Part shown: piece by piece, positions 8,133 to 26,374 of the stretch
Layout: every line of letters starts with the position of its first letter
Numbering within the stretch: position 1 is the first letter of the stretch
Assembly: GCA_963742415.1 (NCBI GenBank)
Contig: CAVULX010000004.1
Location: forward strand, 256,001-320,000
Direction of reading: 5' to 3'
From: an uncultured Parachlamydiaceae bacterium
GTDB lineage: Bacteria; Chlamydiota; Chlamydiia; Chlamydiales; Parachlamydiaceae
Length of the DNA: 64,000 nt
Made by a program: the position numbers and the translations under genes
The notes under the pieces: model-generated
What the model was told of the DNA's origin: nothing
Seen by the model: only the letters and a program-made list of their open reading frames with translations
Databases searched by the model: none

Positions 8133-8828
8133 ATGTATAAAGTGTTTATCGGCACTGAGGAGGCCCAATGGCTTCCAACAGAAGTGCTCAAACATAGCAT
8201 TCTTCGCCGATCCTCCTCGTCCTATGAATTTGTAGAATTAAAGAATATCCCCATTAGCTTAAATATTAAAATGTATACGGGGTTTTCTTTTTACCGTTTT
8301 TCTATTCCCGAAACCTGCCAATTCCAGGGAAGGGCGCTTTATTTAGATGCAGACATCGTCGTCCTGTGCGATCTTAAAGAGTTGTTTGAAATTGAGATAG
8401 ATGGTTATGGCGTCTTATCAAGACCTTATCCTAAGATTAATGGATATTTTACCAGTGTCATGATCATGGATTGTGCCAAGCTCACCAACTGGAAAATTCA
8501 TCAATGGGTCACTCTTATCAATGCAAAAATTGCAGGCTATCGTGATACCATGGCTGCAAACCCGCTAGGGTTGTGCCATAAAGAATTTGGGCCATTGGAC
8601 ACGATTTGGAACGACTTTGATCAATGTTCTGAAAAAACAAAAATACTCCACTATACCTATGTTCCCACACAGCCTTGGAAAAAAGCTGGCCACCCTTATG
8701 CCTATATATTCTTAAAAGAGATGAAGTCGGCGTTAGATGCTTCCGTCTTCTCGGCGGACGAGGTCAAAAAGGAAATTGATGAAGGGCACATCTATCCAGA
8801 GATTCTTGCGGATGCTATGAATTCTTAG
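8133..8828 (+). CDS. Glycosyltransferase, GT-A fold (GT8-like)
   Basis: FSFYRF, ALYLDAD (DxD), ILHYT...QPW. Confidence 0.8.
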   Translation: MYKVFIGTEEAQWLPTEVLKHSILRRSSSSYEFVELKNIPISLNIKMYTGFSFYRFSIPETCQFQGRALYLDADIVVLCDLKELFEIEIDGYGVLSRPYPKINGYFTSVMIMDCAKLTNWKIHQWVTLINAKIAGYRDTMAANPLGLCHKEFGPLDTIWNDFDQCSEKTKILHYTYVPTQPWKKAGHPYAYIFLKEMKSALDASVFSADEVKKEIDEGHIYPEILADAMNS

Positions 8829-10095
8829 CACGTGTGCGGGCTAATCTTTGATGAGCCCTTGTGAAATGTTGCGCGCAAATGGCTCCGGTAATCGACAGTT
8901 CCCCTGCCAAAGCTGTGGCTGCGCAGACCTCTGCTAGAGCTTGGGCTTTGCCCGCCCCTGCGAGATTTAAGAGGCGCAGAGCAGCATTTTGAGAAGGAAG
9001 CCCTGTACCACCGCCGACAGTTCCCACCATCAAATTGGGTAAAGTCACTGAGATGTACAGATCTTTTTGAGGGGTTAGCTCAAACCGTGTGACACCTACC
9101 GCAGATTCAGCAACGCAAGCCACATCTTGACCGCAAGCCAAATAAAGGGCTGCAAGGCCGTTAGCATAATGCCCTTGGACTCCAATGGTCCCGCTTAAGA
9201 CCCCCCCTATAGCTGTCATATACCATAGTTTGACCATTTTTTCGGGGGTCGTATGAAGGTATTTTTTGACCAATTCAGCATTCAAATGGACTTCGGAAGT
9301 CACCTTTTTTCCACGCACAGATTGAAAGGACTGCGTGCTCGCTTTTTTATCCCCCGACATGTTGGCTTCGATAAAATAGTGTTGGGGAGCAACAGGGCAT
9401 TTTTCGATGATATAGTTTAAAGCAGCCTCTGTAGCAATCGTGACCATATTTTGTCCGGAAGCGTCACCGGTTATGTACTCAAAAATAATATAGACATGGT
9501 TTCCTTCGATGGTGACCTGGAAATCTTGTAGTTTGGCATACCGGCTTGTGGATTCAGCGGCGGCTTTGATCGTTTGGAGATTCCCTAAGCACCAGTTGAC
9601 GAACAAGCCGACTTCGGAGATGGTTCTGAAAGCAAAACCGGGGGCTCGTGTTATCCCTTCACACAGCAAAGTGGCTGTGCAGCCGCCGGCTTCACTGATG
9701 AGCATCGCTCCCCGATGGTAGGAGGCGACTAGAGCCGCTTCGGTGGTGGCGAGTGGAATATAGAAATCTCCTTGAGCATAGAGGCCGTTAATGCGAAGCG
9801 GGCCAGCCAAGCCGACGGGAATTTTAACCGTGCCGATAAAATTTTCGATGTTATGGTCATATTTTTCCATTAAAGAGGCTGTCTGTGGGTCGAGCAAATA
9901 GGATTTTTGTTCTGCAGGCAAATCAAAAAGGTCCCACCGTTTTTCGACTGAAGAGGGGGTGATCCGGGCGCCCCCTGGAACTCTCGGAGGAAGGGGTGAG
10001 TTTTTTGGAACGAGCCGCTGAAGAAGCTCTTCCTGGGAATGCTTTTCCAGCAATCTTTGCAAATGGTCCTTTCCGAAGCGATAGCCTTTAGTCAT
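8815..10095 (-). CDS. hmgA: HMG-CoA reductase-like protein, class I type
   Basis: ENFIG, PLATTEAALVAS, TGDASGQNM, NMSGDKK cis-loop, RGKKV, ACGQD, GTVGGGT and a C-terminal His (AHQRL). Confidence 0.9.
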   Translation of the reverse strand: MTKGYRFGKDHLQRLLEKHSQEELLQRLVPKNSPLPPRVPGGARITPSSVEKRWDLFDLPAEQKSYLLDPQTASLMEKYDHNIENFIGTVKIPVGLAGPLRINGLYAQGDFYIPLATTEAALVASYHRGAMLISEAGGCTATLLCEGITRAPGFAFRTISEVGLFVNWCLGNLQTIKAAAESTSRYAKLQDFQVTIEGNHVYIIFEYITGDASGQNMVTIATEAALNYIIEKCPVAPQHYFIEANMSGDKKASTQSFQSVRGKKVTSEVHLNAELVKKYLHTTPEKMVKLWYMTAIGGVLSGTIGVQGHYANGLAALYLACGQDVACVAESAVGVTRFELTPQKDLYISVTLPNLMVGTVGGGTGLPSQNAALRLLNLAGAGKAQALAEVCAATALAGELSITGAICAQHFTRAHQRLARTRAKNS

Positions 10096-10254
10096 ATTAT
10101 CTCGTATAAGTTACAAATTTTTAAATAGCTCAGAATGGGAGCCAAATAATAAATGTTATCACCCAAATAGAATTATAGGCAATCTTAACACTAAACTGGC
10201 AAATAAAGGTTTGTTCGTCATTCCCTTCATTCAGAATCATGCAAATATTTGGAA

Positions 10255-10491
10255 AAACAGACTCGAAATGTGCTTTGCCTAAAAACTTTAGTCTCGACAC
10301 ACTTCAGCCTTTAAAATTACCACAGAGCTCACAGAGAACACAGAGAGTGGTCTTATGAATTATTTAATTAATCCAGACATGTCTGATGAAGAAACACCCT
10401 CTCTGTGTTCTCTGTGAGCTCTGTGGTAATTTTAAAGGCTGAAGTGTGTCGAGACTAAAGTTTTTAGGCAAAGCACATTTCGAGTCTGTTT
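10255..10491. repeat. Perfect 93-bp inverted repeat with 51-bp spacer
   Basis: 10255-10347 is the exact reverse complement of 10399-10491; the inner ends carry CACAGAGnn units. Confidence 0.95.
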
Positions 10492-10579
10492 AAAAGATTT
10501 TGAACAGGTTCTAAGTTGATAAAGGAGGCACAATTATGCTACGATGCCGTAGAGGTGAGATGAATCTAATGTTAAGCCT

Positions 10580-11149
10580 ATGAAGATTTATGTGAAAAGG
10601 GATTTTCCTGTATCAAATGTACGCCGGTTTCTTGAGCCTGGCCCCATCGTTTTAGTGAGTTCGGCATGGAAAGATGAGATCAACATAATGACGATGGGAT
10701 GGCATATGATTATGGAGTTTGAGCCATCCTTAGTTGGATGCTATATTTGGACCGAAAATCATAGTTTCAATATGGTGCGAAAAAGTAAAGAATGTGTGAT
10801 TAATATCCCAACGGTTGAAATTGCAACTCAAGTGGTTGGCATTGGCAACTGCTCGGGGCGTGATGTGAATAAGTTTGAAAAATTTAAGCTGACCCCAATT
10901 CAAGGCAAAAAGGTCAAGGCACCGCTTATCAAAGAGTGCTATGCTAATTTCGAGTGCAAGCTCATCGATTCAAGTCTCATTAACAAATACAGTCTTTTTG
11001 TCTTGGAAGTCGTCAAGGCACACGTGGCAGTTTCTCCTAAATTCCCAAAAACAATCCACTATCGGGGCGACGGACTGTTCATGATAGCGGGACCGACAAT
11101 CGCGAAGTATCGCAAATTGTTTAAGCCTGAGATGCTAGACGATCCTTAA
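10580..11149 (+). CDS. Flavin reductase-like FMN-binding protein
   Basis: PGPIVLVSS, NIMTMGWH, GNCSGRDVNKF, APLIKECYANFEC. Confidence 0.88.
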   Translation: MKIYVKRDFPVSNVRRFLEPGPIVLVSSAWKDEINIMTMGWHMIMEFEPSLVGCYIWTENHSFNMVRKSKECVINIPTVEIATQVVGIGNCSGRDVNKFEKFKLTPIQGKKVKAPLIKECYANFECKLIDSSLINKYSLFVLEVVKAHVAVSPKFPKTIHYRGDGLFMIAGPTIAKYRKLFKPEMLDDP

Positions 11150-11204
11150 ATTATGGATCGAGAAGGGGGTCTGGTGGGGGTGATAGATAAATTTTCTGGA
11201 TTCT

Positions 11205-11441
11205 TTATACTAACGCAAGATTTGATGAAATGAGACGTTGCAATTGACTTACTAAATATAGGGGGATTGATAATATTCCGTCATGAAACGATAACGGATG
11301 TTGTGATATACGAATACCACAGGGGGCTTTCTTTTCTGTCAAAAATTGCGCTAAAGATTTAAGAGTACCTGTTGTTCCCGCCTTGACTTCAATAGGAAGG
11401 ATCTTGGATCCTATTTGAATAACAAAATCAACCTCAGCCAT
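11205..11441 (-). pseudogene. C-terminal fragment of an AAA/DUF4143-type ATPase (PD-(D/E)xK tail only)
   Basis: AEVDFVI...PIEVKAG...LKSL...IPLYL; no ATPase domain upstream. Confidence 0.75.
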
Positions 11442-11460
11442 AGAACCGCCTTATCTCGCT

Positions 11461-11661
11461 TTATGGGGGATGTTTTAACACAAAAAGTGCTATTTTATGG
11501 GGGGTGTTTTAACACAAAAAGTGCTATTTTATGGGGGGTGTTTTAACACAAAAAGTGCTATTTTATGGGGGATGTTTTAACACAAAAAGTGCTATTTTAT
11601 GGGGGGTGTTTTAGCAAGAATATGCCATTTTAAGGGAATGTTCCAGCAAAATCTGTATATT
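11461..11661. repeat. 34-bp tandem repeat: four near-perfect copies and two degenerate copies
   Basis: Unit ttatggggg(a/g)tgttttaacacaaaaagtgctatt at 11461, 11495, 11529 and 11563, decaying after 11597. Confidence 0.95.
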
Positions 11662-11702
11662 CGAAATTTACTTTTCTTATTGCACCGTGCCTTGATATAA
11701 AA

Positions 11703-11918: not shown

Positions 11919-12025
11919 TGGGCTCAAGTGCCGGGCGCGAAAAAGGGTAAAAAATTAAAAAGTGTTTGAAGGGAAAAGAGGGATAAGCGCACAATTAAAT
12001 CTCACTTTGAGTTTTTTGAGGTTTT

Positions 12026-12727
12026 GTGCAGAGAGAAGCTGTCTATCAAATCAGAGATGTAAAATTTTCCTACAAGCTTGGAACACAATGGATCCAAGCA
12101 TTATCAGGCGTTTCATTGGATGTTCCGGCAGCGAAAGTGATTTGCTTTTCCGGCCCCTCCGGATCAGGAAAAACAACCCTTCTAAATATTTTGGGTCTCA
12201 TCGAACCCATTCAAGAAGGAACCGTGATTTTCTCCGGAGAAGATCTAAGTACCTTAACAGAGTCCCGAAAGAACCATATTCGCAGATATCATATCGGCTT
12301 CATTTTTCAGCAATTCCATTTACTTCCCGTTTTGACCGCCGAGGAAAATGTAGAGTACTTTTTAGTCAGGCAAAAGCTCCCTGCGGATGAACGTCGAGTT
12401 TTAGTTAGAGAATCATTGGAAGCAGTAGGGTTATGGAGCCATCGCCACAAAAAGCCCTTGGAAATGAGCGGTGGCCAAAGGCAGCGGGTAGCTATCGCCC
12501 GGGCCATCGCCAAGCGTCCCAACGTGATCATTGCTGATGAACCTACAGCAAGCCTTGATCAAAAGACCGGACAAGATATCATGGATCTTTTACACCGATT
12601 TACAAAAGAAAGAGAGGTCTCCATTCTAGTCGCGAGCCATGATCTTATGGTTCATCAATATGCCGACCACCACTTCAAAGTCCGCGATGGGCAGCTCTAT
12701 TCCCATTCAGACAAAGGGGAACACTGA
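12026..12727 (+). CDS. ABC transporter ATP-binding protein (LolD/MacB-like)
   Basis: GPSGSGKT, GFIFQQFHL, MSGGQRQRVAIARA, IIADEPT. Confidence 0.95.
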   Translation: MQREAVYQIRDVKFSYKLGTQWIQALSGVSLDVPAAKVICFSGPSGSGKTTLLNILGLIEPIQEGTVIFSGEDLSTLTESRKNHIRRYHIGFIFQQFHLLPVLTAEENVEYFLVRQKLPADERRVLVRESLEAVGLWSHRHKKPLEMSGGQRQRVAIARAIAKRPNVIIADEPTASLDQKTGQDIMDLLHRFTKEREVSILVASHDLMVHQYADHHFKVRDGQLYSHSDKGEH

Positions 12728-13932
12728 TGCTTCTCCTCACAGCTTTCCGCAATTTATTTCGCAACACGCGCCGCACATTGGCTGTGGTTTTGACAGTCGC
12801 TTTTGGCGTGGGAGCTTTATACTGCTTCGATGGGTTTAATGTCGGCATCATGAATCAATATCGAGAGAACACCATCCACTCCCGCTATGGCCATGGCCAG
12901 ATCAATACCCAAGGTTATAGAGACAGAGTTTATGAGAAACCTTGGGAACACTGGATTTCCGATTGGGGAAACCTAAAAACATTCTTGCAACGATTGCCCG
13001 GTGTTCAATATGTCTTTCCACGGGTCAGTTTTTTTGCGCTGTTGACAAACGGAAAAATTACCGTCAGCGGCTTAGGGCAGGGGATTGATGCCCCATCAGA
13101 AGCGGCCTTTTTTACCACTTTGAATGTAGAATCGGGCGTCATCCTATCTGATCAACCCGATGGTGTGATGCTAGGAAGTGGTTTGGCCCGAACGTTAGAT
13201 GTCAAGCCGGGGGATCGGGTGACAATTTTAGCGAATACTATTTATGGAACGATCAATGGGATCGATCTTATTGTCACGGGGATTTTTCACACGGGAACGC
13301 AAGAGTTCGACGACCGGATTTTTCGTTTGCCGCTGCAACAAGCTTTTACTTTGCTTGATACCGACAAAGTGGAAACCGTTTCGTTGGGATTGAAATCGCT
13401 GAAGGATTGGGATCCTGTTGCTAAATCGACTACCAGCGAGTATCCAAACTTGGAGGCGACCCCTTTTGCCGTATTGGACGAGGTGTATTATCAACATTCA
13501 GTCGATTGGCTTAAAGCTCAGTTTGCTGTGATTCAAGTGATTATTCTGACCATTGTTCTTTTGGGGATATTCAATTCGGTTTCCACAGCCATATTGGAAA
13601 GGAAACAGGAAATTGGCAATCTTAGGGCTAACGGGGAATCGGTCATGGATATCCTTAAACTATTAGCTTTAGAAGGGATGACTTTGGGTGTCGTAGGGGC
13701 ATTTTTTGGAATTTTAGGGTCTTTAATTCTCAATTATACTTTGTTGAATCAAGGGATTTTAATGCCTCCTGCGCCAGGATTGACAAGGCAATATCACGTA
13801 TTGGTTGAATTACAGCCCGATATGGCCTTATACTGTTTTATCATGGGTGTCGCTGCCGCTTTAGTCGCCACTTTATTTGCAGGGATCAAAGTGGCTCGAC
13901 TGCCAATAGGGGAAGCGTTGCGATCTGTTTAA
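12727..13932 (+). CDS. ABC transporter permease (LolC/E, FtsX-like)
   Basis: AFRNLFRNTRRT start, large periplasmic loop, ERKQEIGNLRANG, three C-terminal TMs. Confidence 0.92.
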   Translation: MLLLTAFRNLFRNTRRTLAVVLTVAFGVGALYCFDGFNVGIMNQYRENTIHSRYGHGQINTQGYRDRVYEKPWEHWISDWGNLKTFLQRLPGVQYVFPRVSFFALLTNGKITVSGLGQGIDAPSEAAFFTTLNVESGVILSDQPDGVMLGSGLARTLDVKPGDRVTILANTIYGTINGIDLIVTGIFHTGTQEFDDRIFRLPLQQAFTLLDTDKVETVSLGLKSLKDWDPVAKSTTSEYPNLEATPFAVLDEVYYQHSVDWLKAQFAVIQVIILTIVLLGIFNSVSTAILERKQEIGNLRANGESVMDILKLLALEGMTLGVVGAFFGILGSLILNYTLLNQGILMPPAPGLTRQYHVLVELQPDMALYCFIMGVAAALVATLFAGIKVARLPIGEALRSV

Positions 13933-13956
13933 AAAATTCTCCAAAAAGAGGGAAAA

Positions 13957-15809: not shown

Positions 15810-15810
15810 T

Positions 15811-17675: not shown

Positions 17676-17804
17676 TCTTTTTCTCAATTATACAGTAAAA
17701 GTTTGCACACTCTCTATACCTTCGGTGTAAAAGCCAATTTAAACAATTGGCTTTTCTTTTTATACATAATAACGTGTACAACATTGTAGCGAAGGTGAAA
17801 ATTT

Positions 17805-18133: not shown

Positions 18134-20818
18134 TTATAATATTTTAATTGTACCGGCTTTGCCATCCATTTGCACTTTCATGCCGGTCTGCAATTTTTTC
18201 GTTAAGCTTGGAATCGATACAATAGCGGGGATCCCCATTTCCCGGGCGACGATAGCAGAATGGGACAGCAAGCTTCCCCTTTCGACTAAGAGTCCGGAAA
18301 TGCTGGGATAAAGGGGAACCCAACCGGGATCGGTGCGGTGAGTCACCAAGATTTCTCCGTTCAATGTCAAATCATCATCGGGAGAAGACACGACTTTAAT
18401 GATCCCTTCCACGATCCCCGGGCAACAGGGTAATCCTTTCAAATCATAATCGCCGTTTATTTGCTGTTGAGGAGGGGGCTCTTCTTCAACTAAACAGCGG
18501 TTATTCCAATATACAGGGCCGCGCGTCATAAAGCGGGGTTTTACTTCCTCATCCTCGAATTTGGCATAATCTTCTTTTCTCAATTTCACGACAGGGGTGA
18601 GGTTGAAAGAGGTCAAAGTGCCATACTGGATTCCAAACACTTCATCCATGGTCAGATAAAAAATATCGTCGGCTCTTTCTAAGATCCCTCTGTTGGCCAA
18701 ATCCTCACCCATGGCTTGGAACATGGTCCTGGCAATGCCGTAGATGCGGGTCCGGGCAAAGCGGGTGTTTTCCCTGTTGCGCACCGCTTTGCGGGCATGT
18801 TTCAAGACCCAAAAGTAGAATTTCTGCTTCCATCCTTTCAAATGTCCAGAAACTTGCTCTTCGGCTTTTAAGCGCAATTGCTTCTCTCTTTGCTCATAAG
18901 CCACGAGGTTGGTATAGCCGGAACGGAGGTAATTCTTCAAACAGACAAAAAGATAGGATGGATCGGCGATAAGATCCCGCGCTTCTAATTTCATTTCGCT
19001 CATGCAGCGGAAGCCAAAACGGTCTAGATACTGATTGACTTGTTTAAAAAATTTGAGATGGGAAGACCTGGACAAGGCTTCATAAGTATCTTCGGCCGGT
19101 GTGGTTTCGATCAACGCCTTCAAGGCTGGATCTTTCGTAATGTCGTCCGCCATTTTAATCAGAACTTTTGTGGGCTCTGCGCTTTCGAGGTTGCCTTCCC
19201 CTGCGATCAGATCATTTTGAACGTTGGGATCCAGGTCGGACAGCCACTGTGTTGTTAACTTGCGCAGAAGGCCAAAGTGGACCATGCATAAAAAGTCGTT
19301 GATGATCGGGGCATGCCAACGGTTGAACATGTTCCGTTCCAATTCTAGATAGACCCGCAAGATCTCATCGCTCCGCATCTGGGCGTAATTTTTTTTCCGG
19401 TAGTTTTGATATTCTCGATCAAAATCGTGCAGAAAACGATCCACCTTTCTTTGAATGGTGAAGTGGTAATAGAGAAATTTAAGACCGGTGCAAAATTTTC
19501 TCCATTTACCTTTCCCAGTTTCCCAAGAGGGGTGGGGTTTAATCCGCTGTGCAATTTCTTCTGAGAGGCTTTCGGATACTCCCATCATCGTTTCCATGAA
19601 TTCCCGATTTTGCTTAAAACCCGGCAAAACTCCGACGAGCTTATACCAATTGTACAAATTGTAATAGACCCGGCCGTGAATGCAGCCGAGCATATGGGAG
19701 AGATAGTCATCCATTTCCCTGACGATTGAGGGGGGAACGCTTAATATTTCGCAAAACTGTTGGTAGACATTGTGGTAGTTCCGCAAGGCGAAAGTAAACG
19801 AGAGTGGAAGGGTTAATCCCCCATAGCTTTCGACAATGTTGGAATTATCCCAAAGGTTTGGATAACCCTGCGGATTTTGATCCAAGGTTGTAACGGGGCG
19901 TGTTTGGAGCAAGTAGAGGGTTCCATTTTCGAAGGCCCATTCGATATCTTGGGGAAAACGGTAGTATTTATCCACTTGTTGCCCTAGCTTGTAGAGCATC
20001 GTCAATTCAACGTCATGCAATGCAGGTGAGCCCTGCTGTGCTTTATCTACAGGCTTTCGGACAACATGTCCGGCTTCTCCACGCCGCATCGCTTCCGTTT
20101 TGTTTGCGATTTCAGTTTTGGTAACGGAGCCGGTGATGGCATCGAGCCAATAATTGTCTGCATCCAAGGCCCCGGAAACCAGCCCTTCGCCGACGCCGTA
20201 GACGGCTGAAATCAAGTATCGATTGGTTTTTTTTTCGATAGGATCGCAGGTAAAAAGCACTCCGGCGCGGTCAGCATCTACCATCCGTTGAAAAATTACC
20301 GCGACAGCTGCTTCTAAAGGATCCAATCCATTTTCCCGCCGATAAATCAAGCACCGCTCGGAAAATGTCGACGCCCAACATTTTTTTAGGAATAGGCACG
20401 CCTCATCCACATTGCTCACATATAAAAAGCTGGAAAGCTGGCCAGCAAAGGAGTGGTGAACTCCGTCTTCATCGGCGGCTGAAGAACGGACGGAGAAAGT
20501 CCCTTCATTCCCGACTGTTTTGACAGCTTCGGCTACGGCTACAATAATGTGAGGGGGGAGTTCTTGAGCTAGAAATAGTGCTTCGATGGTATGTGAGATT
20601 TCGGCCGGGGAGATCATCCCTTTTTTCATTTCGGTTAGTAGATCTTTGAGTTTTTGGTCTAACCCGGTTTTTGCGAGAAACGTTTCAAAATATCTGCGCC
20701 CTAAAATCACCCAGGGAGGGACAGTTAGCCCTTGATTTGACATCAGATAAAGGTTATATCCTTTGCCTCCGGATTCCCTTCTTGCAAAGTTTTGTGACGA
20801 TTCTTTTGTGACTAACAT
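18134..20818 (-). CDS. PEP-synthase-family phosphotransferase (ATP-grasp, substrate domain, phospho-His swivel; rifampicin-phosphotransferase-like architecture)
   Basis: GGKG, VRSSAADED, SFAGQ, QDIEWA, LQTRPVT, TDPGW, GSLLSHSAIVAREMGIP. Confidence 0.9.
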   Translation of the reverse strand: MLVTKESSQNFARRESGGKGYNLYLMSNQGLTVPPWVILGRRYFETFLAKTGLDQKLKDLLTEMKKGMISPAEISHTIEALFLAQELPPHIIVAVAEAVKTVGNEGTFSVRSSAADEDGVHHSFAGQLSSFLYVSNVDEACLFLKKCWASTFSERCLIYRRENGLDPLEAAVAVIFQRMVDADRAGVLFTCDPIEKKTNRYLISAVYGVGEGLVSGALDADNYWLDAITGSVTKTEIANKTEAMRRGEAGHVVRKPVDKAQQGSPALHDVELTMLYKLGQQVDKYYRFPQDIEWAFENGTLYLLQTRPVTTLDQNPQGYPNLWDNSNIVESYGGLTLPLSFTFALRNYHNVYQQFCEILSVPPSIVREMDDYLSHMLGCIHGRVYYNLYNWYKLVGVLPGFKQNREFMETMMGVSESLSEEIAQRIKPHPSWETGKGKWRKFCTGLKFLYYHFTIQRKVDRFLHDFDREYQNYRKKNYAQMRSDEILRVYLELERNMFNRWHAPIINDFLCMVHFGLLRKLTTQWLSDLDPNVQNDLIAGEGNLESAEPTKVLIKMADDITKDPALKALIETTPAEDTYEALSRSSHLKFFKQVNQYLDRFGFRCMSEMKLEARDLIADPSYLFVCLKNYLRSGYTNLVAYEQREKQLRLKAEEQVSGHLKGWKQKFYFWVLKHARKAVRNRENTRFARTRIYGIARTMFQAMGEDLANRGILERADDIFYLTMDEVFGIQYGTLTSFNLTPVVKLRKEDYAKFEDEEVKPRFMTRGPVYWNNRCLVEEEPPPQQQINGDYDLKGLPCCPGIVEGIIKVVSSPDDDLTLNGEILVTHRTDPGWVPLYPSISGLLVERGSLLSHSAIVAREMGIPAIVSIPSLTKKLQTGMKVQMDGKAGTIKIL

Positions 20819-20838
20819 AGTTTATATTTCCTAATGTG

Positions 20839-21066: not shown

Positions 21067-21074
21067 AAAATCAC

Positions 21075-21944
21075 TCATTGCAACATAATAGCAAAAAAAT
21101 AAAGGAGAAAAAGGGTGCTCATGTTTCGAAACACCTTTGCAGAATTCTTATCCTTGACAATACCTAGGTAGAGACTGGCCGCCAATAAAATAAGGAGTCC
21201 TACGCAGAGTAGCGGCAAGCTTGAGGGGAGCATCAACCCAGCAAGCAGCGTTCCGACCAAGGCTTGGCTCAGGCTTAAAGCAAGAGCTCCCCAAACTCCA
21301 TAAAGGGAAGAATAGCTTTCCACATCAGACCTTTCTTCTCCAGGAGCAAAGGTTTTTCGAGCGAATTCAAATAAATTGAACAGGCTCCAATTCATCAATC
21401 CTGTCAGAAGCAAAAGGGGAGGAAACTGCCAGATAGGCTTTGAGATGATGATTGTGATCAAAGCATAGCCTAAGAAGGCAGAAACCAAGGTGTGCGTAAT
21501 GGCGTAGAGCGTCAAGTGGGGGCGCAGCCATTTTCCGATAAAAAATTCCTTGTACATCAGGAGGCTGTACCCAATGGCCACGAGTTGCGTGAACAGCGCG
21601 TAGATTCCAATCCAACCGGCCAAAATCACTTCGAAGGCGATGAGATATAAACTGCTGTTCCAAACTTGCCCTGGGGTTAAAACCCCGCGTGCCAAGGGGC
21701 GTTGAGGATTATGCTTAAGGTCGGTTTCATAATCTTTAATTTCATCATAGAACCGGAGCCGGAGAAAAAAGGAGAGGGCGAGGACAAAAGCTGCTGCATA
21801 AGAGAGCCAAGAAGTTTTGGCCCCAGTCAGGTGTTGCGCAATCACTCCATTCCCCCCGACAAAGAAAAAGATCATCGGGATCATCGCTAGAGGGGGAAAC
21901 CGCTCTTTGATAAAAGTCCACCAATTTGAATTAAGACAAAGCAT
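21075..21944 (-). CDS. UbiA-family prenyltransferase
   Basis: Asp-rich YDEIKDYETD, NPQRPLARG, multiple TMs. Confidence 0.85.
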   Translation of the reverse strand: MLCLNSNWWTFIKERFPPLAMIPMIFFFVGGNGVIAQHLTGAKTSWLSYAAAFVLALSFFLRLRFYDEIKDYETDLKHNPQRPLARGVLTPGQVWNSSLYLIAFEVILAGWIGIYALFTQLVAIGYSLLMYKEFFIGKWLRPHLTLYAITHTLVSAFLGYALITIIISKPIWQFPPLLLLTGLMNWSLFNLFEFARKTFAPGEERSDVESYSSLYGVWGALALSLSQALVGTLLAGLMLPSSLPLLCVGLLILLAASLYLGIVKDKNSAKVFRNMSTLFLLYFFAIMLQ

Positions 21945-23646
21945 CCACGGTATCCTCTTTGAGTAATTTTTCCCGCAAAATGGTGTATTCTACTTTGCTG
22001 TGATGGCGTGGATCCATCGGGATGGCATCGACAAAATAGATAGAATCAACCGGGATCTTATTTTTAGCAAAAACCCTTTTAATTTCTTGGGTGGAAAGAG
22101 CTTCATCACTTCCTGGCTGCAGCACCACCGCCACGGTATTTCGTTCATTTAATACAGGATCTGGCATCCCCAAGAAAGCAGCTTGTTTAACAAACGGAAA
22201 TCGTTTTAAGATGACTTCTGCGGTCACGGGAAAATAGTATTTATTTTCCCGGATGATCACATTATGGATCCGGCCGACAATCCAAAGGCACCCCTTCTTA
22301 TCCTCAAAAGCAAGATCGCCCGTGCGGTGCCAGATTTTCCCTTTTTCATCCACAATTTTGGCGCGGCGAAAGGCTTCTTCGTTGTTGTAGTAATCGCGGC
22401 AGACATGATCTCCCGTTACAATAAATTCCCCCACTTGCCCTTTGGGGACTTCCAAGTCGCGCAGATGGATTTTGGTACCATCAATGGGGTTTTTGTTTAT
22501 TTTCAGAAATTTGTATTCGAGGTCGTCGCTAATATGGCCCACATTGACCCCTTCTTCTACGATATCAGGATCGGAATGGGAAGTGACCGATAACATCTCT
22601 TTACCTTCAATGTGTGCCATCGGCTCCACCTCAGTAGAACCATATAAAATCCAAATTTGGGCATGGGGAGCTATTTCATAAAAGGCTTTAACATCATCAC
22701 GGCTGATCGGGGCCCCTCCCGTAACTACCCGTCGCAAAGTTTTTAGGGTCAGCTGATGTTCTTTGCAATAAGCGGATAAATGATTGAACATCGATGGGGA
22801 AAGCGTAGCGCAGGTTACCCCTTCATTCAGGATCTGGCAAGCTAAGAGGGCTGAATCTTTATCTGAAGGTTGGGCCAAATTCAATGCAGGAAGAATCGTG
22901 GTCACTCCGGCAGCCAAATTATTCAACGAAAAAATGGGGAAGGCAGGGAGGTCTCTATCTTTTTCGGTATAGGGAATCACTTTATCCAAAGCTTCATGCT
23001 GTGCTGAAAGGAACCGATGGGTCCGGTTTGCCCCTTTAGGCTTCCCTGAACTTCCTGTTGTAAAAGTGATCAAAGCTGTAGTTTCCGATTGAACGGGGGC
23101 AATTGGGGCTTCGCGGGGTGTCCCCATCAATTTCTCTAGCGTCGCGTCATAATGCTCTTGGGGACCAGGACCTGCTAAGATCCGATACTTTAAGCTCTTA
23201 AATTCAGGGATATTCTGAATAAGATCGAAGGCCGCTTGGTGGCTAATCATGCCGACAGCTTGAACACATTCTGCGGTGGCTCCAAGGTGGTGTGCGCGAG
23301 CCCAAGAGTCTAAAAATACAGCGATAGCTCCGATCCGCTGGACAGCAAACATCGCGGCATACATTCCGAGACCCATCGGTAAAAAAATGATGATCCGATC
23401 CCCCTTTTTAACACCAAGCTCCAGCAATCCTTGAGCTGTGCGGCTGATTAAAATGGCGAAATTATGGTAATTGACCGAGTGGTGCTGGAGTTTATCACGG
23501 GGATTTCCATCCCAAGAGGAGAGGGCTTTTGCGTCTGCCCAGCTAAGTGCTAGCCGTTCAGGAAAATCTTTAAGATGTTGTTCCATGTAAGTGATGACAT
23601 TATTCAAAACGCTTTCGCCTGACTGATAACCTATTCTGGCATTCAT
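21931..23646 (-). CDS. AMP-dependent ligase, OleC-like
   Basis: FTTGSSGKPKG, YGSTEVEP, WHRTGD, C-terminal PMDPRHHSKV. Confidence 0.88.
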   Translation of the reverse strand: MNARIGYQSGESVLNNVITYMEQHLKDFPERLALSWADAKALSSWDGNPRDKLQHHSVNYHNFAILISRTAQGLLELGVKKGDRIIIFLPMGLGMYAAMFAVQRIGAIAVFLDSWARAHHLGATAECVQAVGMISHQAAFDLIQNIPEFKSLKYRILAGPGPQEHYDATLEKLMGTPREAPIAPVQSETTALITFTTGSSGKPKGANRTHRFLSAQHEALDKVIPYTEKDRDLPAFPIFSLNNLAAGVTTILPALNLAQPSDKDSALLACQILNEGVTCATLSPSMFNHLSAYCKEHQLTLKTLRRVVTGGAPISRDDVKAFYEIAPHAQIWILYGSTEVEPMAHIEGKEMLSVTSHSDPDIVEEGVNVGHISDDLEYKFLKINKNPIDGTKIHLRDLEVPKGQVGEFIVTGDHVCRDYYNNEEAFRRAKIVDEKGKIWHRTGDLAFEDKKGCLWIVGRIHNVIIRENKYYFPVTAEVILKRFPFVKQAAFLGMPDPVLNERNTVAVVLQPGSDEALSTQEIKRVFAKNKIPVDSIYFVDAIPMDPRHHSKVEYTILREKLLKEDTVDALS

Positions 23647-23659
23647 CGTTCACCTCAAT

Positions 23660-24379
23660 TTATTGAAATATTTTTACAATTTCTTCGATGACTTTGTTGG
23701 GATGGGTCCACGGAAGGGCGTGGCCGGCTGTAGGAATATTTTTCACATTGACATTGCCCAATTTACTTAAGATTGCCATTTGCTTTGCAGGGGGAGCGGA
23801 TTGGTCCTTTTCCCCGAAAAGAACTCTGATGGGGGTGTTGGATTTCGTTAACTGAACTGAAAGAGGATTTGCGAGCATAAGTTTTTTATAGGCGGCTCCA
23901 GCTCTCCATACTTGCGCATGGGACAAATAAGTTTTAAGTTGATTTCCCACTTCTTCCGAGGGGATCTCAGGCTCAAAAGTTTTTTGTATAAAAGCCGCGG
24001 CCATCTTGCGGCTGCGCATTTTTAAAGCGAGGGTTCCGAATAAGGGGATTTTTAAAGCTGTGGTCAAACAGTTAGGCAGCGGTTTTTCGTCTATCAACAG
24101 GGGATTCACTAAGACCAAACCGGCCACATTTTCAGGAAAGCGGTTCAGATAGGCCATGGCAAGATAGGCACCCCAAGAATAAGCCGCAATTCCAAAAGGG
24201 CCTCCTCCCGAAACTTTAGCTGTTGCGTTGATACTTTGAATTAAAGATTCCAATTTGCAATTTTTTAATAATCGTTTGTGGATGATCGGGTTAATCCCTT
24301 GGGCTTGTAAAGGGGCGATCAAAGGTTCAAACTCTTGCCCTTGCAAAGGGTTGCCATGCAGGCAAATCAACATTTTCAT
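23660..24379 (-). CDS. Alpha/beta hydrolase
   Basis: HGNP oxyanion motif, AYSWG nucleophile elbow, GEKD, GHALPW. Confidence 0.85.
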   Translation of the reverse strand: MKMLICLHGNPLQGQEFEPLIAPLQAQGINPIIHKRLLKNCKLESLIQSINATAKVSGGGPFGIAAYSWGAYLAMAYLNRFPENVAGLVLVNPLLIDEKPLPNCLTTALKIPLFGTLALKMRSRKMAAAFIQKTFEPEIPSEEVGNQLKTYLSHAQVWRAGAAYKKLMLANPLSVQLTKSNTPIRVLFGEKDQSAPPAKQMAILSKLGNVNVKNIPTAGHALPWTHPNKVIEEIVKIFQ

Positions 24380-25113
24380 AATAAGAGTCCTTTTAGTCTA
24401 AAAGACTTGATATCTTTAAACGAGGGCGTCTTTCGCATTTTTATTTCACCGGTAGAGATGTTTGGGGTCCCTTCCGGCATTCCATTTGTTTCAATTTGGC
24501 TTAAAAGTTTTTTTAAGGTCTCGCATTCGAGGCGAGAGGCCTTGTGAATATAATCGATAAAATCATTTTCCCCATTTTTCGAAGCAACGACCCTCTCCAA
24601 TATTTTTCCATCATCGATTTTTTGGTTCATCTTGTGGATTGTAAAACCCGCGGGCTGGTTTTCAGCCAAAGCCCACAAATCACACATCAACCCCCGTTGC
24701 TCAGGCAATAAGCCGTGATGAATATTAAGGCATCCAAGCGGCGGTTGTTTTAAAATTGGTTCCTTATAAAGGTAACGTGTGCGGGCGTTAACGACAAGAT
24801 CAAACTGATGATTACGGAGGAGAGCCAAGGCTTGTTCGCAGTTAATCGTATCCAAAAACCAGACGGGTTTATTGAGTGCATTGTAAGTCTTTAACCGTTT
24901 CGATGAACGGGAGAAGGAGTTGCGGATCAATGTCTTACCAAAGCGAGGAGCTCCTGCCAAGATGAGCGTTAGCCCCTTAAAGAACAGCTTAAGATTGCCA
25001 TTGCGGAGAATTAACAATCCCCCTATTTGGGGGCAGTCGGCCATGCCGCAAATCATTTCATCATAATTGTCCGGAACAAAGGTTATTTCGGACGTAACCA
25101 AAAGAGTTTTCAC
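24376..25113 (-). CDS. Formyltransferase-family protein
   Basis: LNIHHGLLPEQRG and GFTIHKMNQKIDDG (Asn/His/Asp triad). Confidence 0.85.
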   Translation of the reverse strand: MKTLLVTSEITFVPDNYDEMICGMADCPQIGGLLILRNGNLKLFFKGLTLILAGAPRFGKTLIRNSFSRSSKRLKTYNALNKPVWFLDTINCEQALALLRNHQFDLVVNARTRYLYKEPILKQPPLGCLNIHHGLLPEQRGLMCDLWALAENQPAGFTIHKMNQKIDDGKILERVVASKNGENDFIDYIHKASRLECETLKKLLSQIETNGMPEGTPNISTGEIKMRKTPSFKDIKSFRLKGLLL

Positions 25114-25120
25114 AAGAGCC

Positions 25121-26374
25121 TCAATAGTAGTGGGTCAGCCAAACAAAAATGCGGTCTTTTTTTCGATAAGGGCCAATATAACCACTGGTAGGGGTTCCCG
25201 ATCCAATGACCCCGGCTAAAATATCGGCTCTCAACTCTAATTCCCATGAATCTGAAATTTCCCAAGAAAATTTTGGCTGAATCCAACAATCGTAATTATT
25301 TAAACCATGATACAGGAAAACATCAATTTTGTATTGTTTATCTTTTCCAAATTCTTGGTAATATCTAAAGGAAGCGAAATAAAGGGTTTTTTCCCTCCAA
25401 TAATCGCTATGCAATTGAGCCCCGATCGAGGTCCCTTCATCGGTCGTATAATCTAATCCTAGAATGGTGCGCCAAACATTGCGCAGGCGCACGATGCCAA
25501 AGCGATGCACGGTCCACGGCTCATGCAGGTGAAAAACGGTGTCTCCTCTGAGGACGATTTTTTCAAAGGCTTTGCTAATGGTTGCTCCAAAAGTGCTGAT
25601 ATGCTTGAGTTCAGGTTTAACAACCGGCTTGCCGTCATGGGGTCCCACTTTATAGGCCGGATTTCGGTTCCAATGCCGCAGGTAAAAAACGGAAATATCA
25701 ATCCCAGATTCAAATAAATAATTTATTTTTATGCCGTATTCGACATCCTTTCCCCAGCGCCAAACAGAGAATTTGGAAGGGCCTAACAAGGGAAGGGCAT
25801 GGAAAGGTTCAGGAATCACATCGAAAGGGGAGTTTTTACCCGGGTAAAGATTGTTCATGGGAATAGGGGTCACTATGAGTTGCACTGTCCAAGGCTCATG
25901 GAAATATTGCCCATTGAACATGCAAACAGGGATCCGAATCCACCCCAAATCATTTAAAAAGGGGTCGGTATAGTCGCGGGGGTTAACTAAGTCAGCGATA
26001 TAAAGTCCAAAAGTTTCCCCCCAGGCGACTTCTTGAAAGCCGATCTTAATGCTCCAATTGTCGGTATTCCGCTCATAAAATAAAGAGCGGATCTCAAGAT
26101 CTTTTTTGTGCCCTCGGAAGTCATACCAGAGGCGAAACGAGGCTTCGTATAAGTTTAAGGAAGAACAAGCTGGATCTTCTTCGCTGCATTCGCTGCTATA
26201 AGATCCTTTGCCATGGAGATAAGGGCGGCTGCGGGTCATCCCATTTTCTTCAAAACCGCAGGCAAACTGATATCCCGAGTCGAATTCAGTTTTTACATCT
26301 TTCCATTCGAATCCTTCGCAGGGGCAAAAACTTAAAGCAAATAGGATGGTGATTTGAAATAAAAAGCAAAGCAT
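25121..26374 (-). CDS. Putative outer-membrane beta-barrel protein (DUF1302-like)
   Basis: Signal peptide, IGFQEVAWG...DLVNPRD, aromatic amphipathic strands, terminal aromatic residue. Confidence 0.7.
   Translation of the reverse strand: MLCFLFQITILFALSFCPCEGFEWKDVKTEFDSGYQFACGFEENGMTRSRPYLHGKGSYSSECSEEDPACSSLNLYEASFRLWYDFRGHKKDLEIRSLFYERNTDNWSIKIGFQEVAWGETFGLYIADLVNPRDYTDPFLNDLGWIRIPVCMFNGQYFHEPWTVQLIVTPIPMNNLYPGKNSPFDVIPEPFHALPLLGPSKFSVWRWGKDVEYGIKINYLFESGIDISVFYLRHWNRNPAYKVGPHDGKPVVKPELKHISTFGATISKAFEKIVLRGDTVFHLHEPWTVHRFGIVRLRNVWRTILGLDYTTDEGTSIGAQLHSDYWREKTLYFASFRYYQEFGKDKQYKIDVFLYHGLNNYDCWIQPKFSWEISDSWELELRADILAGVIGSGTPTSGYIGPYRKKDRIFVWLTHYY

Follow-up and report, generated by a model that had tools for sequence, protein, structure and literature searches.

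The window, meaning the whole stretch of 64,000 nucleotides analyzed here, carries a group of twelve genes, all full-length and intact as judged from ORF calls and searches of Pfam and NCBIfam, and every gene named in a first-pass annotation was recovered at its position. The host of these genes is a member of an obligately intracellular lineage. The genes and one further feature are as follows.

8815-10095, minus strand: HMGR-like gene (PF00368, 385.8 bits)
12026-12727, plus strand: ATPase of an ABC exporter, DevA/LolD-like (PF00005)
12727-13932, plus strand: FtsX/MacB-type permease with periplasmic domain (PF02687 and PF12704)
13957-14694, plus strand: periplasmic LolA-like carrier (PF17131, 122.9 bits)
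14712-15809, plus strand: DUF3419 (BtaA-family) SAM-dependent transferase, type "a" (PF11899, 214.3 bits)
15811-17208, plus strand: polytopic membrane protein of 465 aa (no Pfam match)
17729-17755, no strand assigned: possible terminator hairpin (consensus scan)
18134-20818, minus strand: PigC/Rph-type phosphotransferase (PF01326, PPDK_N, and PF00391, PEP-utilizers)
21075-21944, minus strand: UbiA-fold intramembrane transferase (PF01040, 39.2 bits, cut-off 34.2)
21931-23646, minus strand: AMP-forming acid ligase (PF00501 and PF13193)
23660-24379, minus strand: alpha/beta hydrolase (PF00561/PF12146)
24376-25113, minus strand: N-formyltransferase, Formyl_trans_N (PF00551)
25121-26374, minus strand: DUF1302-family outer-membrane protein (PF06980, 25.9 bits, cut-off 23.2)

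The spacing of genes within the plus-strand operon ranges from one shared base to 24 nt, and the HMGR-like gene is 1.93 kb away from the ABC gene. This spacer had been described as decayed mobile debris, and repeats and a remnant ORF are indeed present: a perfect inverted repeat of 93 nt (10255-10347 and 10399-10491), a 34-nt tandem repeat at 11460-11629 read as about five units (reported by the program as four overlapping 68-nt copies at 34-nt spacing), and an 81-aa remnant ORF that we take to be DUF4143-like. The description does not fit the intact flavin-reductase ORF at 10580-11149. A 351-nt query across the inverted repeat gave 75 genome matches, its own site on both strands included. The hairpin between the two convergent operons (11 pairs followed by a T tract) is a possible terminator, but is treated as a lead only, because terminator-like sites across the whole region were no more frequent in the consensus scan than in shuffled sequences.

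The proposal that both operons belong, with the HMGR-like gene lying at a distance, to one conserved functional unit was supported by co-occurrence in other genomes. More than 100 loci, assigned to at least 12 phylum-level labels and with several gene orders among them, carry genes of the cassette together, and the grouping is therefore not due to chance. Because cluster genes served as seeds for these loci, the counts hold for the subfamilies concerned and not for DUF3419 genes at large. For the window's DUF3419 (type "a"), 61 related genome loci were found; it shares only 22-23% identity with type "c", which heads the operons of a second form of the cluster. In the first form, represented by 22 loci in which the DUF3419a gene is flanked by 8 kb or more on both sides, the phosphotransferase and the ligase are present in all 22, the membrane protein adjoins DUF3419a in 21, the HMGR-like and UbiA genes are present in 19 each and GNAT in 17, all within 7.4-11.8 kb. 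Locus L001 carries the pair of DUF3419a and membrane protein alone, on an 11.8-kb contig.

The second form, mostly from Bdellovibrionota, is represented by 80 loci seeded by DUF3419c, many of them cut by contig ends, with the ligase in 51, UbiA in 46, the phosphotransferase in 45, the LolA-like carrier in 29, the formyltransferase in 27, the ABC ATPase and the hydrolase in 25 each, DUF1302 and the permease in 23 each, and GNAT in 17. Neither HMGR-like nor kinase-like genes were found in any of these 80 loci, and HMGR was not found in any of five whole genomes of the second form. A total of eight second-form loci (four metagenome and four genome) carry nine genes (formyltransferase, hydrolase, ligase, UbiA, phosphotransferase, ABC ATPase, permease, LolA-like carrier and DUF1302) on one strand, and the predicted link of export with biosynthesis is thus borne out. 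This count leaves out one metagenome locus with a ligase at 29% and mixed orientation, and further loci beyond the eight are cut by contig ends. In a third context, an AAR/PigE-like protein (thioester-reductase-like, but a different one from HMGR) and DAGK_cat lipid kinases stand beside DUF3419c.

These comparisons show a constant core of five enzymes that keep company across many phyla: DUF3419 enzyme, N-acyl capper (GNAT or formyltransferase), AMP ligase, UbiA-fold protein and PigC/Rph-type phosphotransferase. One accessory module consists of the HMGR-like reductase and the kinase-like membrane protein, and the other of the ABC ATPase, MacB-type permease, LolA-like carrier and DUF1302 protein. 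The window is a hybrid, with both accessory modules and the formyltransferase version of the core.

The distribution is patchy: a UbiA match was found in three of 300 scored genomes of the phylum, the DUF1302 gene in one of 301 searched, that of the window itself, and carriers within Sphingomonas and Sulfitobacter are isolated species. The phosphotransferase, UbiA, ligase and formyltransferase of the window are closest to Bdellovibrionota and Victivallales versions, and its DUF3419, membrane protein and HMGR to first-form versions. In the phosphotransferase tree, the window falls in a set of 13 rows (10 second-form and two Victivallales rows besides its own) with SH-like support of 100. For five cassette proteins in 20 loci, pairwise identities correlate (rho 0.51-0.83, 999 permutations), host relatedness contributing. 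By these sequence comparisons the histories of the genes in the window are mosaic, a point against the linear chain of the first-pass annotation.

With respect to export, the ABC ATPase gave 198.6 bits against TIGR02982 and 188.6 bits against TIGR02211, both under the cut-off, and is 50-61% identical to cluster-linked second-form ABC genes. The permease (96 bits against LolCE, cut-off 362) is 39-67% identical to cluster-linked permeases, and 50-67% within colinear operons. In another chlamydial genome, ABC (59%) and permease (55% identical) genes are located inside the cassette, beside HMGR. A MacB/LolCE-type permease with a periplasmic carrier is a design for extracting lipid-anchored cargo. 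The LolA-like carrier, with a signal peptide but no lipobox, is 41-60% identical to second-form homologues encoded between the permease and DUF1302 genes, the LolA-like gene in these operons being followed by DUF1302. The DUF1302 protein has a signal peptide and a C-terminal aromatic residue, and 12 of its 18 relatives in the protein collection match PF06980. Pairing of DUF1302 with a LolA-superfamily protein is known in hydrophobic monoterpene efflux (PMC6394551).

The HMGR-like protein is predicted to be a soluble NADPH thioester reductase of class I type whose substrate pocket is altered. The closest PDB match is archaeal 6hr7, and the score against TIGR00533 is 329, below the NCBIfam equivalog threshold of 441.8. 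E84, K250, D324 and H415 are kept in 42-43 of 43 cluster-linked homologues, and R128, D249, K250, K251, H309 and N312, the HMG-binding positions of the human enzyme, are also retained. Glu243 aligns to human Ser684 (Glu in 34 and Asp in nine of the 43 homologues), and together with Gln215 is invariant in 120 of the 120 nearest clusters; Ser and Met occupy these positions in all three distinct class I HMGRs of known structure for which an alignment was printed. Since the serine binds the HMG carboxylate, its replacement by Glu suggests a substrate other than HMG-CoA. The polarity of the conserved pocket (R128, K251, K/R263 and E243) favors as substrate an acyl group that is small and charged, though no particular one.

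The 465-aa protein had been called phytol-kinase-like. It and its 21 homologues (22 sequences) gave no Pfam match, and D139, A143, G146, E164, G165, E207, D215 and N216 are invariant. The AF2 model (pLDDT 88) matches CarS 5guf over residues 120-232 at Z 6.2, which is noise level; its motif aligns to the CdsA of the host genome with an hhalign E of 0.36; and a 215-aa relative bears the JGI name "phytol kinase". The N-terminal half may thus resemble CTP-dependent lipid kinases or cytidylyltransferases, a likeness that is statistically weak.

The ligase gave 362 bits against PRK09274 (cut-off 478), with 4-coumarate-CoA ligase, FadD13 and LC-FACS as the best PDB matches (about 100 bits); K551 is conserved, and identity to second-form ligases is 47-62%. 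Its designation as OleC-like is valid at the level of superfamily, but not of family (204 and 197 bits; cut-offs 850 and 900). Ligase and UbiA form a single ORF in three Planctomycetota loci, and their genes overlap by 4-16 nt in five further loci and overlap in the window too. In the UbiA protein (AF2 model, pLDDT 93.8) the first motif, D67-E68-x-K70-D71-x3-D75, is invariant, and the second is E193-x2-R196-K197...E204, in which Glu, Arg and Lys replace the second Asp-rich motif; the donor therefore may not be a prenyl diphosphate. UbiA chemistry requires an ionizable donor. The phosphotransferase, composed of ATP-grasp, a central substrate domain and a C-terminal phospho-His swivel, was previously taken for a PEP-synthase-type kinase, but the Pfam search listed no PEP-utilizers_C match and the protein aligns over its full length with RedH (396 bits) and PigC (366 bits), which makes it by sequence a PigC/Rph-type enzyme and not a PEP synthase. 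It gave 1170 bits against NF004881, and H853 (the phospho-His) and the ATP-grasp residues are kept in at least 90% of 42 sequences.

The N-formyltransferase lacks a C-terminal domain, retains N130-x-H132 and D167/D168, and matches best ArnA, sugar N-formyltransferases and Fmt. Its gene occupies, upstream of the ligase, the operon slot of GNAT in most other loci. GNAT was detected by tblastn in 38 of 63 loci searched, with no homologue in the host genome of the window, and in one chlamydial genome GNAT and the N-terminal domain of the membrane protein share one reading frame. This exchange at one position suggests that the product contains an amine, in place of the formylation as late tailoring only that had been assumed. 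The hydrolase (Ser68 in AYSWG) has second-form counterparts, 23-30% identical and located between formyltransferase and ligase, in 25 of the 80 loci, against 27 for the formyltransferase.

The cluster has no PKS/NRPS core, no description of it was found in the literature, and the gene set matches no described pathway, as claimed; the predicted product is most likely membrane-bound and shipped to the outer membrane. The reading we favor, at slightly better than even chance, is that a single modular cluster, gained by horizontal transfer, makes up the region, and that it would serve to make a membrane-bound amphiphile and export it to the outer membrane. A lipid, probably prenyl-based, would be built or anchored by UbiA and the phosphotransferase; DUF3419 would put a SAM-derived 3-amino-3-carboxypropyl group on a lipid hydroxyl; the new amine would be formylated and the formyl group might later be removed by the hydrolase; the ligase would activate a carboxylate, which might be the one on the added group, and the resulting CoA thioester would be converted to an alcohol by the HMGR-like enzyme. 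Extraction of the product from the inner membrane would fall to the Lol-like machine, and delivery to the DUF1302 barrel to the LolA-like protein. The order of the biosynthetic steps is pure inference on our part. Against this scheme, the ligase may use a different acid, and DUF3419 might instead transfer a methyl group or have a substrate that is not a lipid. The reduction is not needed for a core product, since in five of five second-form genomes the ligase is retained and HMGR is absent.

The linear assembly line of the first-pass annotation (ligase to acyl-CoA, HMGR to alcohol, two phosphotransferases to a diphosphate donor for UbiA, then DUF3419 and formyl tailoring and export) is unlikely. 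Neither the first form nor the window lacks any of the required enzyme types, and these are inherited together; the catalytic residues of HMGR and the phospho-His are conserved, and a membrane protein with a CdsA/phytol-kinase-type motif is included. In the second form, however, ligase, UbiA and phosphotransferase stay together without HMGR or kinase-like protein, and HMGR is therefore not an obligatory link between ligase and UbiA; these two, being fused or translationally coupled, should be adjacent and not three steps apart. Moreover, a UbiA donor has to ionize, which a saturated primary alkyl diphosphate would fail to do, and the pocket of HMGR is polar.

A secreted small molecule (signal, metallophore or antibiotic-like), with ABC, LolA-like and DUF1302 proteins as efflux route, is similarly improbable. 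The patchy distribution is typical of horizontally spread accessory clusters, nicotianamine-type metallophores contain SAM-derived aminocarboxypropyl groups, the phosphotransferase and the AAR/PigE-like reductase resemble enzymes of pigment pathways, and the monoterpene efflux pairing is of this kind. Such a product is, however, at odds with two polytopic membrane enzymes in the unit, one of them fused to the ligase, with a permease and carrier suited to lipid-anchored cargo, and with the DAGK_cat lipid kinases of the third context. A genuine HMG-CoA reductase, as the source of mevalonate for a short, non-canonical route to an isoprenoid that UbiA transfers, is very doubtful: the PF00368 match is strong and the human HMG-binding positions are kept, but Ser is replaced by Glu in all 120 clusters, the score is under the equivalog cut-off, the second form works without HMGR, and in the host genome (estimated completeness 84%) HMG-CoA synthase was not found, a single GHMP kinase and the MEP-pathway enzyme IspH being present. 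That the genes are neighbors by chance or island assembly is hardly credible, for although the window copy is mosaic and repeat-flanked with HMGR 1.9 kb from the rest on the opposite strand, the recurrence across phyla and the identity correlation, even with host kinship contributing, speak against it.

This orphan cluster of an environmental chlamydia shares its gene combinations with many other bacterial phyla. BtaA adds 3-amino-3-carboxypropyl to diacylglycerol, and DUF3419 of the window is proposed to act likewise; the hydrolase may follow the Arn pathway, in which a formyl group is later removed. The phosphotransferase aligns end to end with the condensing enzymes PigC and RedH. For the UbiA model, Foldseek placed DGGGP synthase (7bpu/6m31, E 1e-5, TM 0.62) first, followed by ApUbiA, AfUbiA and UBIAD1, and the closest structural relative is thus an ether-lipid enzyme.

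All genes named in the first-pass annotation were recovered by the listing of open reading frames (ORFs) and by Pfam and NCBIfam scans. The twelve genes of the cluster form a plus-strand operon, in which the intergenic spacing ranges from one shared base up to 24 nt, a set of minus-strand genes converging on it, and a separate HMGR-like gene. The lengths of all twelve match those of their homologues.

Genes of the cluster (position in the window, strand, assignment)
8815-10095, minus, HMGR-like enzyme, 1.93 kb upstream of the ABC gene
12026-12727, plus, ABC ATPase, LolD/DevA-like
12727-13932, plus, FtsX/MacB permease, LolCE/MacB-like
13957-14694, plus, LolA_like protein (PF17131)
14712-15809, plus, DUF3419 protein (PF11899)
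15811-17208, plus, 465-aa polytopic protein, no Pfam match
20818-18134, minus, PPS-like protein (PPDK_N and PEP-utilizers mobile domains)
21944-21075, minus, UbiA-family protein
23646-21931, minus, AMP-forming ligase
24379-23660, minus, alpha/beta hydrolase
25113-24376, minus, formyltransferase, Fmt (PF00551)
26374-25121, minus, DUF1302-like protein (PF06980)

The spacer between the HMGR-like and ABC genes had been described as decayed mobile debris; repeats and a short gene remnant are found there, but so is an intact flavin-reductase ORF. A perfect 93-nt inverted repeat (10255-10491, with a 51-nt gap between the arms) looks like a MITE-like element, and a 351-nt query across it gave 75 matches in the genome including its own site, mostly palindromic pieces of 27-40 nt. 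Just upstream of the ABC operon lies a 34-nt tandem repeat of about five units (11460-11629; listed by the tool as four overlapping 68-nt copies, 34 nt apart). The 81-aa ORF at 11205-11450 on the minus strand, which we take to resemble the C-terminal end of a DUF4143-type ATPase, is probably a gene remnant. Promoter- and terminator-like sites were not more frequent than in shuffled sequences. A 538-aa orphan ORF stops 4 nt ahead of the DUF1302-like gene, and was left out of the cluster because none of the loci examined contains a relative.

The host genome consists of 2.69 Mb in four contigs with 42% G+C, and the cluster genes have 44-47% G+C. Host markers within the window include a CPAF-type protease (PDZ_4 and S41 domains), kdsB beside pyrG, zwf with opcA, and glycogen synthase; the CPAF-like protein has its best matches in metagenome-assembled genomes (MAGs) of Parachlamydiaceae (55% and 46% identity). 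CTP synthase is present as two minus-strand ORFs within 35929-37549 (CTP_synth_N, 36611-37549; GATase, 35929-36753) overlapping by 143 nt; possible reasons are a split gene, a frameshift, or an error in sequencing. An ORF at 62218-62961 on the plus strand carries Myb/SANT DNA-binding repeats, a eukaryote-like domain.

By setting the cutoff at E <= 1e-10, a UbiA match was identified in three of 300 phylum genomes scored, the window's own and two others, and only one of these two, G173 (another chlamydial genome), carries the cassette described below. Of 301 genomes searched, the window's own was the only one with the DUF1302-like protein. Based on these two counts, the cluster is a rare accessory within the phylum, probably acquired horizontally.

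Every locus came from a search seeded with cluster genes; many are metagenome bins, whose taxa were taken from record titles. Scanning with DUF3419, at one genome per species, gave 61 loci, assigned by title to Gemmatimonadota, Planctomycetota, Verrucomicrobiota/Lentisphaerota, Fibrobacterota, Acidobacteriota, Bacteroidota, Actinomycetota, Methylomirabilota, Eisenbacteria, Cyanobacteria, Bdellovibrionota, and Alpha- and Gammaproteobacteria. Co-occurrence across phyla, as the first-pass annotation implied, was thus borne out: a cassette of seven genes, for the HMGR-like enzyme, UbiA, PPS-like protein, DUF3419, 465-aa-type membrane protein, a GNAT acyltransferase (approximately 330-345 aa), and ligase, recurs in loci of many phylum-level labels. 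Where at least 8 kb of sequence flanks DUF3419 on either side (22 loci), every locus has PPS and ligase, 21 have the membrane protein, 19 HMGR, 19 UbiA, and 17 GNAT, all within spans of 7.4-11.8 kb; by tblastn, GNAT was detected in 38 of 63 loci searched. Since it is present in 19 of these 22 well-flanked loci, the HMGR-like gene is a regular member of this first form, and in Planctomycetota and Victivallales it is located directly before the genes for DUF3419 and the membrane protein. No substitute reductase was found beside the cassette in first-form loci lacking HMGR. The flanks vary between loci, and clustering of all ORFs in first-form loci gave no further recurrent gene family beyond close relatives. 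Pairwise identities of five cassette proteins are correlated over 20 loci (rho 0.51-0.83), to which shared host ancestry contributes.

The second form was met first as colinear metagenome operons (described below), each headed by a third type of DUF3419, hereafter DUF3419c, with 22-24% identity to either DUF3419 of the window. A DUF3419c seed identified 80 loci in genome_contigs, mostly Bdellovibrionota by title. Many of these end at contig ends, and the counts (ligase 51, UbiA 46, PPS 45, LolA-like 29, Fmt 27, ABC 25, hydrolase 25, DUF1302 23, permease 23, GNAT 17) are to be read accordingly. Neither HMGR nor the membrane protein was found in any of the 80 loci, and HMGR was absent from all five whole second-form genomes; short relatives of the N-terminal half of the membrane protein are located elsewhere in three of these five.

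As judged from sequence likeness, the window is a hybrid of the two forms. The window's PPS, ligase, UbiA, and Fmt share 47-62% identity with their second-form counterparts and only 22-41% with first-form ones, whereas first-form type is seen in the HMGR, DUF3419, and membrane protein. Identities to a locus of Victivallaceae (L016) are 59-60% for PPS, 60% for ligase, 44-50% for UbiA, and 46% for Fmt. In a FastTree analysis of 84 PPS sequences, the window belongs to a set of 13 rows, including ten second-form and two Victivallales rows, with support 100 (SH-like local support only). Both DUF3419 types occur with both kinds of amine-capping enzyme, GNAT and Fmt, indicating that the modules combine freely. 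A third context is seen in L246 (6934-13126) and L291 (5987-11071). DAGK_cat and a 704-aa protein, of which the C-terminal part matches PigE and acyl-ACP reductase, lie beside DUF3419c, LolA_like, and DUF1302, and in a Chlamydiales MAG, genes for PPS-like protein and DAGK_cat precede DUF3419c. With this context, the neighbours of DUF3419 come to include a lipid kinase and another kind of thioester reductase.

The ABC ATPase and permease score below the NCBIfam cutoffs for LolD (188.6 vs. 307.75) and LolCE (96.1 vs. 362.45), and LolA families match the carrier at E 2e-5 or weaker, below their cutoffs; the cutoff of PF17131 (LolA_like) is reached. The DUF1302-like protein gives a partial match to PF06980 (25.9 bits; cutoff 23.2), which is also precomputed on 12 of its 18 relatives. 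Single-protein scans with it gave no relatives in genome_contigs or metagenome_contigs, and an alignment query of 14 sequences (the window's protein and 13 of those 18 relatives) identified 54 metagenome loci. In three of the 54, genes for Fmt, hydrolase, ligase, UbiA, PPS, ABC, permease, LolA-like, and DUF1302 are aligned in this order on one strand; a fourth metagenome locus keeps the nine-gene order with the hydrolase not detected. Except for hydrolase and DUF1302, the proteins of the colinear metagenome operons are 47-67% identical to those of the window. In G173, ABC and permease genes are located inside the cassette, between ligase and HMGR. The proposed joining of export and biosynthetic genes is thus supported by both arrangements. 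The gene membership of the unit, its constant parts, and the inclusion of the outer-membrane export module are established by these data.

Several enzyme names given at first pass required revision. The "PEP-synthase-type kinase" proved to be of another type: only PF01326 and PF00391 were found in the PPS-like protein, without the PEP/pyruvate-binding TIM-barrel domain of PpsA; TIGR01418 scores 280.9 against a cutoff of 739.75, split over two stretches; and the protein aligns end to end with RedH (396.5; cutoff 1350) and PigC (366.4; cutoff 1300), with the phospho-histidine retained. It matches NF004881 at 1170 bits, whose NCBI name, "PEP synthase," is not a tested function. The name "OleC-like" for the ligase goes no further than the superfamily, as OleC beta-lactone synthetase models score 204.3 (cutoff 850) and 197.2 (cutoff 900); the enzyme is akin to CoA ligases that act on aromatic and fatty acids. 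In three Planctomycetota loci (L028, L032, L054), the ligase and UbiA-fold enzyme are encoded by one ORF of 860-932 aa. The UbiA-family model (AF2, pLDDT 93.8) matches DGGGPS, ApUbiA, AfUbiA, and UBIAD1 in Foldseek (probability 1.00; TM 0.57-0.64), with DGGGP synthase closest (E 1e-5, TM 0.62). Canonical UbiA proteins carry the motifs N-D-x2-D-x3-D and D-x3-D; the first is present here as D67-E68-x-K70-D71-x3-D75, and the second Asp-rich motif is altered (E193-x2-R196-K197...E204).

The 465-aa protein, named "phytol-kinase-like" at first pass, carries a CdsA-like motif (D-x2-A-x3-G...K-S-x-E-G-S...E...D-N) in its conserved N-terminal half, but the profile and structure matches behind the name are statistically weak. 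An hhalign comparison with the genome's own CdsA aligned the D-x2-A-x3-G...K-[ST]-x-E-G motif at E 0.36, a wide VIA structural search gave only helical-bundle noise (CarS at Z 6.2, within the noise), and no PDB entry was matched by Foldseek at E <= 0.001. Neither the protein nor any of its homologues (22 of 22 sequences) has a Pfam hit, and three short relatives likewise have none, chance-level rows aside. Atlas feature scores were 0.91 for a cluster with DUF92 in 30% of members and 0.85 for a named phytol kinase family, and JGI gives the name "phytol kinase" to a short relative. The closest relatives of the window's DUF3419 and membrane protein (64% and 51-52% identity) are found as a pair alone (3044-5538) on an 11.8-kb contig, L001, of a chlamydia-like MAG; the MAG also encodes an ankyrin protein and IspH and, on another contig, has a CPAF-like gene. 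Apparent fusions of membrane protein and GNAT in Sphingomonas were rejected as long open frames in GC-rich DNA. Only L066 (another chlamydial genome) has both in one frame (7072-8724, 550 aa), with the N-terminal kinase-like domain present and the C-terminal membrane domain absent.

Among solved structures, the HMGR-like enzyme is closest to archaeal class I HMGR 6hr7 (about 50% identity, estimated from the printed alignment). Its catalytic residues E84, K250, D324, and H415 are shared by 42-43 of 43 homologues and by 120 of 120 nearest sequence clusters, and it also retains R128, D249, K251, H309, and N312. Ser684 of human HMGR, in the cis-loop S-G-N...D-K-K, binds the HMG carboxylate. In alignments with HMGRs of solved structure, from which equivalence to human residues was read, this position is Glu243 in the window, with Glu in 34 and Asp in nine of 43 homologues and Glu in 120 of 120 nearest sequence clusters, and the Met of D-A-M-G-M-N-M is Gln215, invariant in the same 120; in archaeal, human, and plant HMGR structures, the two positions are Ser and Met. 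TIGR00533 matches at 329.4 bits, below its equivalog cutoff of 441.8. HMG-CoA synthase (PF01154) gave no match in the host genome (estimated completeness 84%), in which one GHMP kinase and IspH are present. Of 8000 candidates scored, at least 7991 sequence clusters fall in the subfamily at E <= 1e-20, and every one with a source name is annotated as HMG-CoA reductase. The names HMG-CoA reductase and PEP synthase are probably wrong for the HMGR-like and PPS-like proteins, and would mislead metabolic reconstructions, for instance by implying a mevalonate step in organisms of the MEP pathway. In a protein collection, an HMGR-like protein (P0018, 69% identical) and a DUF1302-like protein (P0134, 52% identical) each have a longest contig of 10424 nt and may share it, in a closer relative of the window's cluster.

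Taking these features together, we lean slightly toward a modular cluster that would make a membrane-bound amphiphile and export it to the outer membrane. A membrane-bound product is inferred from the two intramembrane enzymes, from the fusion of the ligase to one of them, from the Lol-like design of the exporter, and from lipid kinases that accompany related loci. Alternatively, the product may be secreted, and a DUF1302 protein together with a LolA-superfamily protein is part of a monoterpene efflux cluster, according to PMC6394551.

The head-group chemistry proposed for this amphiphile is tentative and less likely than not to be right. DUF3419 matches PF11899 at 214.3 bits (cutoff 28.2). 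The DUF3419 enzyme BtaA catalyses SAM-dependent transfer of a 3-amino-3-carboxypropyl group to the hydroxyl of a lipid (diacylglycerol), and a further step modifies the amine so introduced. Through the BtaA-family enzyme, the aminocarboxypropyl group of SAM would likewise be the source of both amine and carboxylate here. DUF3419 may instead methylate. No methyltransferase domain that could mark a partner like BtaB was found by Pfam scan among the cluster genes. A second DUF3419 gene of the window (56441-57526, minus strand; PF11899, 212.7 bits; 25% identical to the cluster copy and 24% to DUF3419c) adjoins a DUF308 protein and a family-less 232-aa ORF, with no adjacent methyltransferase. A capped amine is argued for by the exchange of two unrelated N-acyl transferases at one operon position, since Fmt holds the place of GNAT, which Atlas also reads as an N-acetyltransferase. 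Fmt (PF00551, 45.7 bits; cutoff 26.1) is closest to ArnA and sugar N-formyltransferases, and its N130, H132, and D167/D168 fit the catalytic Asn-x-His...Asp motif. In the proposed order, the amine would be capped first and the neighbouring carboxylate then activated by the ligase, as in arginine biosynthesis, where an amine is capped before activation of a neighbouring carboxylate; in HMGR-bearing forms the activated carboxylate would be reduced. The ligase may, on the other hand, act on another acid. Transfer of a mevalonyl group, known from the fungal siderophore enzymes SidI, SidH, and SidF, was rejected because Fmt replaces GNAT while the ligase stays, and because a source of HMG-CoA is lacking.

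In its fullest version, which we regard as possible though rather improbable, the five-enzyme core (DUF3419, Fmt or GNAT, ligase, UbiA, and PPS-like protein) would make a new class of bacterial envelope lipid, anchored by a prenyl or alkyl chain. Its SAM-derived aminocarboxypropyl head would be N-formylated or N-acetylated and, in the HMGR-bearing form, reduced to an amino alcohol, and the lipid would reach the outer membrane by a dedicated Lol-like route. If so, the HMGR-like enzyme would be the first of its family with a demonstrated natural substrate that is not HMG-CoA, and Lol-like lipid delivery would occur in environmental chlamydiae, in predatory Bdellovibrionota, and in members of at least ten further phyla. 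A dedicated route of Lol type for cargo other than protein would matter for the understanding of lipid movement to the outer membrane of diderms. The cluster ties four widespread families of unknown or doubtful function, DUF3419, the 465-aa membrane protein, the PigC-like phosphotransferase, and the DUF1302/LolA-like pair, to one testable pathway, and its carriers include cultivable Sphingomonas and Sulfitobacter, in which knock-outs and lipidomics are routine; record titles of first-form loci name Sulfitobacter undariae DSM 102234, Sphingomonas gei ZFGT-11, and Sphingomonas deserti GL-C-18. All twelve genes have stayed intact in a chlamydia of obligately intracellular life, which suggests that they have a role where envelope and host meet.

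A description of this gene set was not found in open-access papers and bioRxiv, and an earlier account in a subscription journal is possible; the Lipocone paper (PMC12419801) mentions a UbiA-linked operon and an HMGR-linked operon, and both differ from this gene set. With class I HMGR, the HMGR-like enzyme shares the fold and the catalytic Glu, Lys, Asp, and His, but differs in the Ser-to-Glu and Met-to-Gln changes of the pocket, invariant in its subfamily as represented by the 120 nearest clusters, and in its genetic linkage to DUF3419 instead of mevalonate-pathway partners, which are absent here. Likeness to archaeal ether-lipid enzymes lies in the fold of the UbiA model (DGGGP synthase), which differs in the second Asp-rich motif, and in the weak structural match of the conserved part of the 465-aa protein to CarS; sequence identities are only 13-18%, and GGGP synthase and G1P dehydrogenase are not in the cluster.

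The export genes resemble the Lol system in the ATPase, permease, and periplasmic carrier, but differ in the absence of LolB, in the use of DUF1302 as the outer-membrane partner, and in their location inside a biosynthetic operon. The pairing of DUF1302 with a LolA-superfamily protein is common to AmeABCD-type efflux, in which the inner-membrane pump is RND, whereas it is ABC here. Prodigiosin and tambjamine synthesis likewise combines a PigC-type enzyme with an acid ligase and a thioester reductase. The PPS-like protein aligns over its full length with PigC/RedH, and a reductase like AAR and the N-terminal part of PigE adjoins DUF3419c in the third context, but the PigC/RedH scores are far under the family cutoffs and the pyrrole-forming genes are missing from the cluster. 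The Arn pathway (ArnA, ArnC, and the deformylase ArnD) employs transient N-formylation ahead of membrane transfer. A stand-alone N-formyltransferase, a hydrolase, and a polyprenyl-type membrane transferase are found alike in the cluster, but the hydrolase is of alpha/beta fold instead of ArnD type, the transferase is UbiA-fold instead of GT2, and sugar-nucleotide enzymes are absent. With DGTS synthesis by BtaA/BtaB, the cluster shares a SAM-dependent enzyme of the DUF3419 family; four further core enzymes have no counterpart there, and while DGTS synthesis includes a BtaB-type methyltransferase, the putative modifier of the amine in the cluster is a formyltransferase or GNAT.
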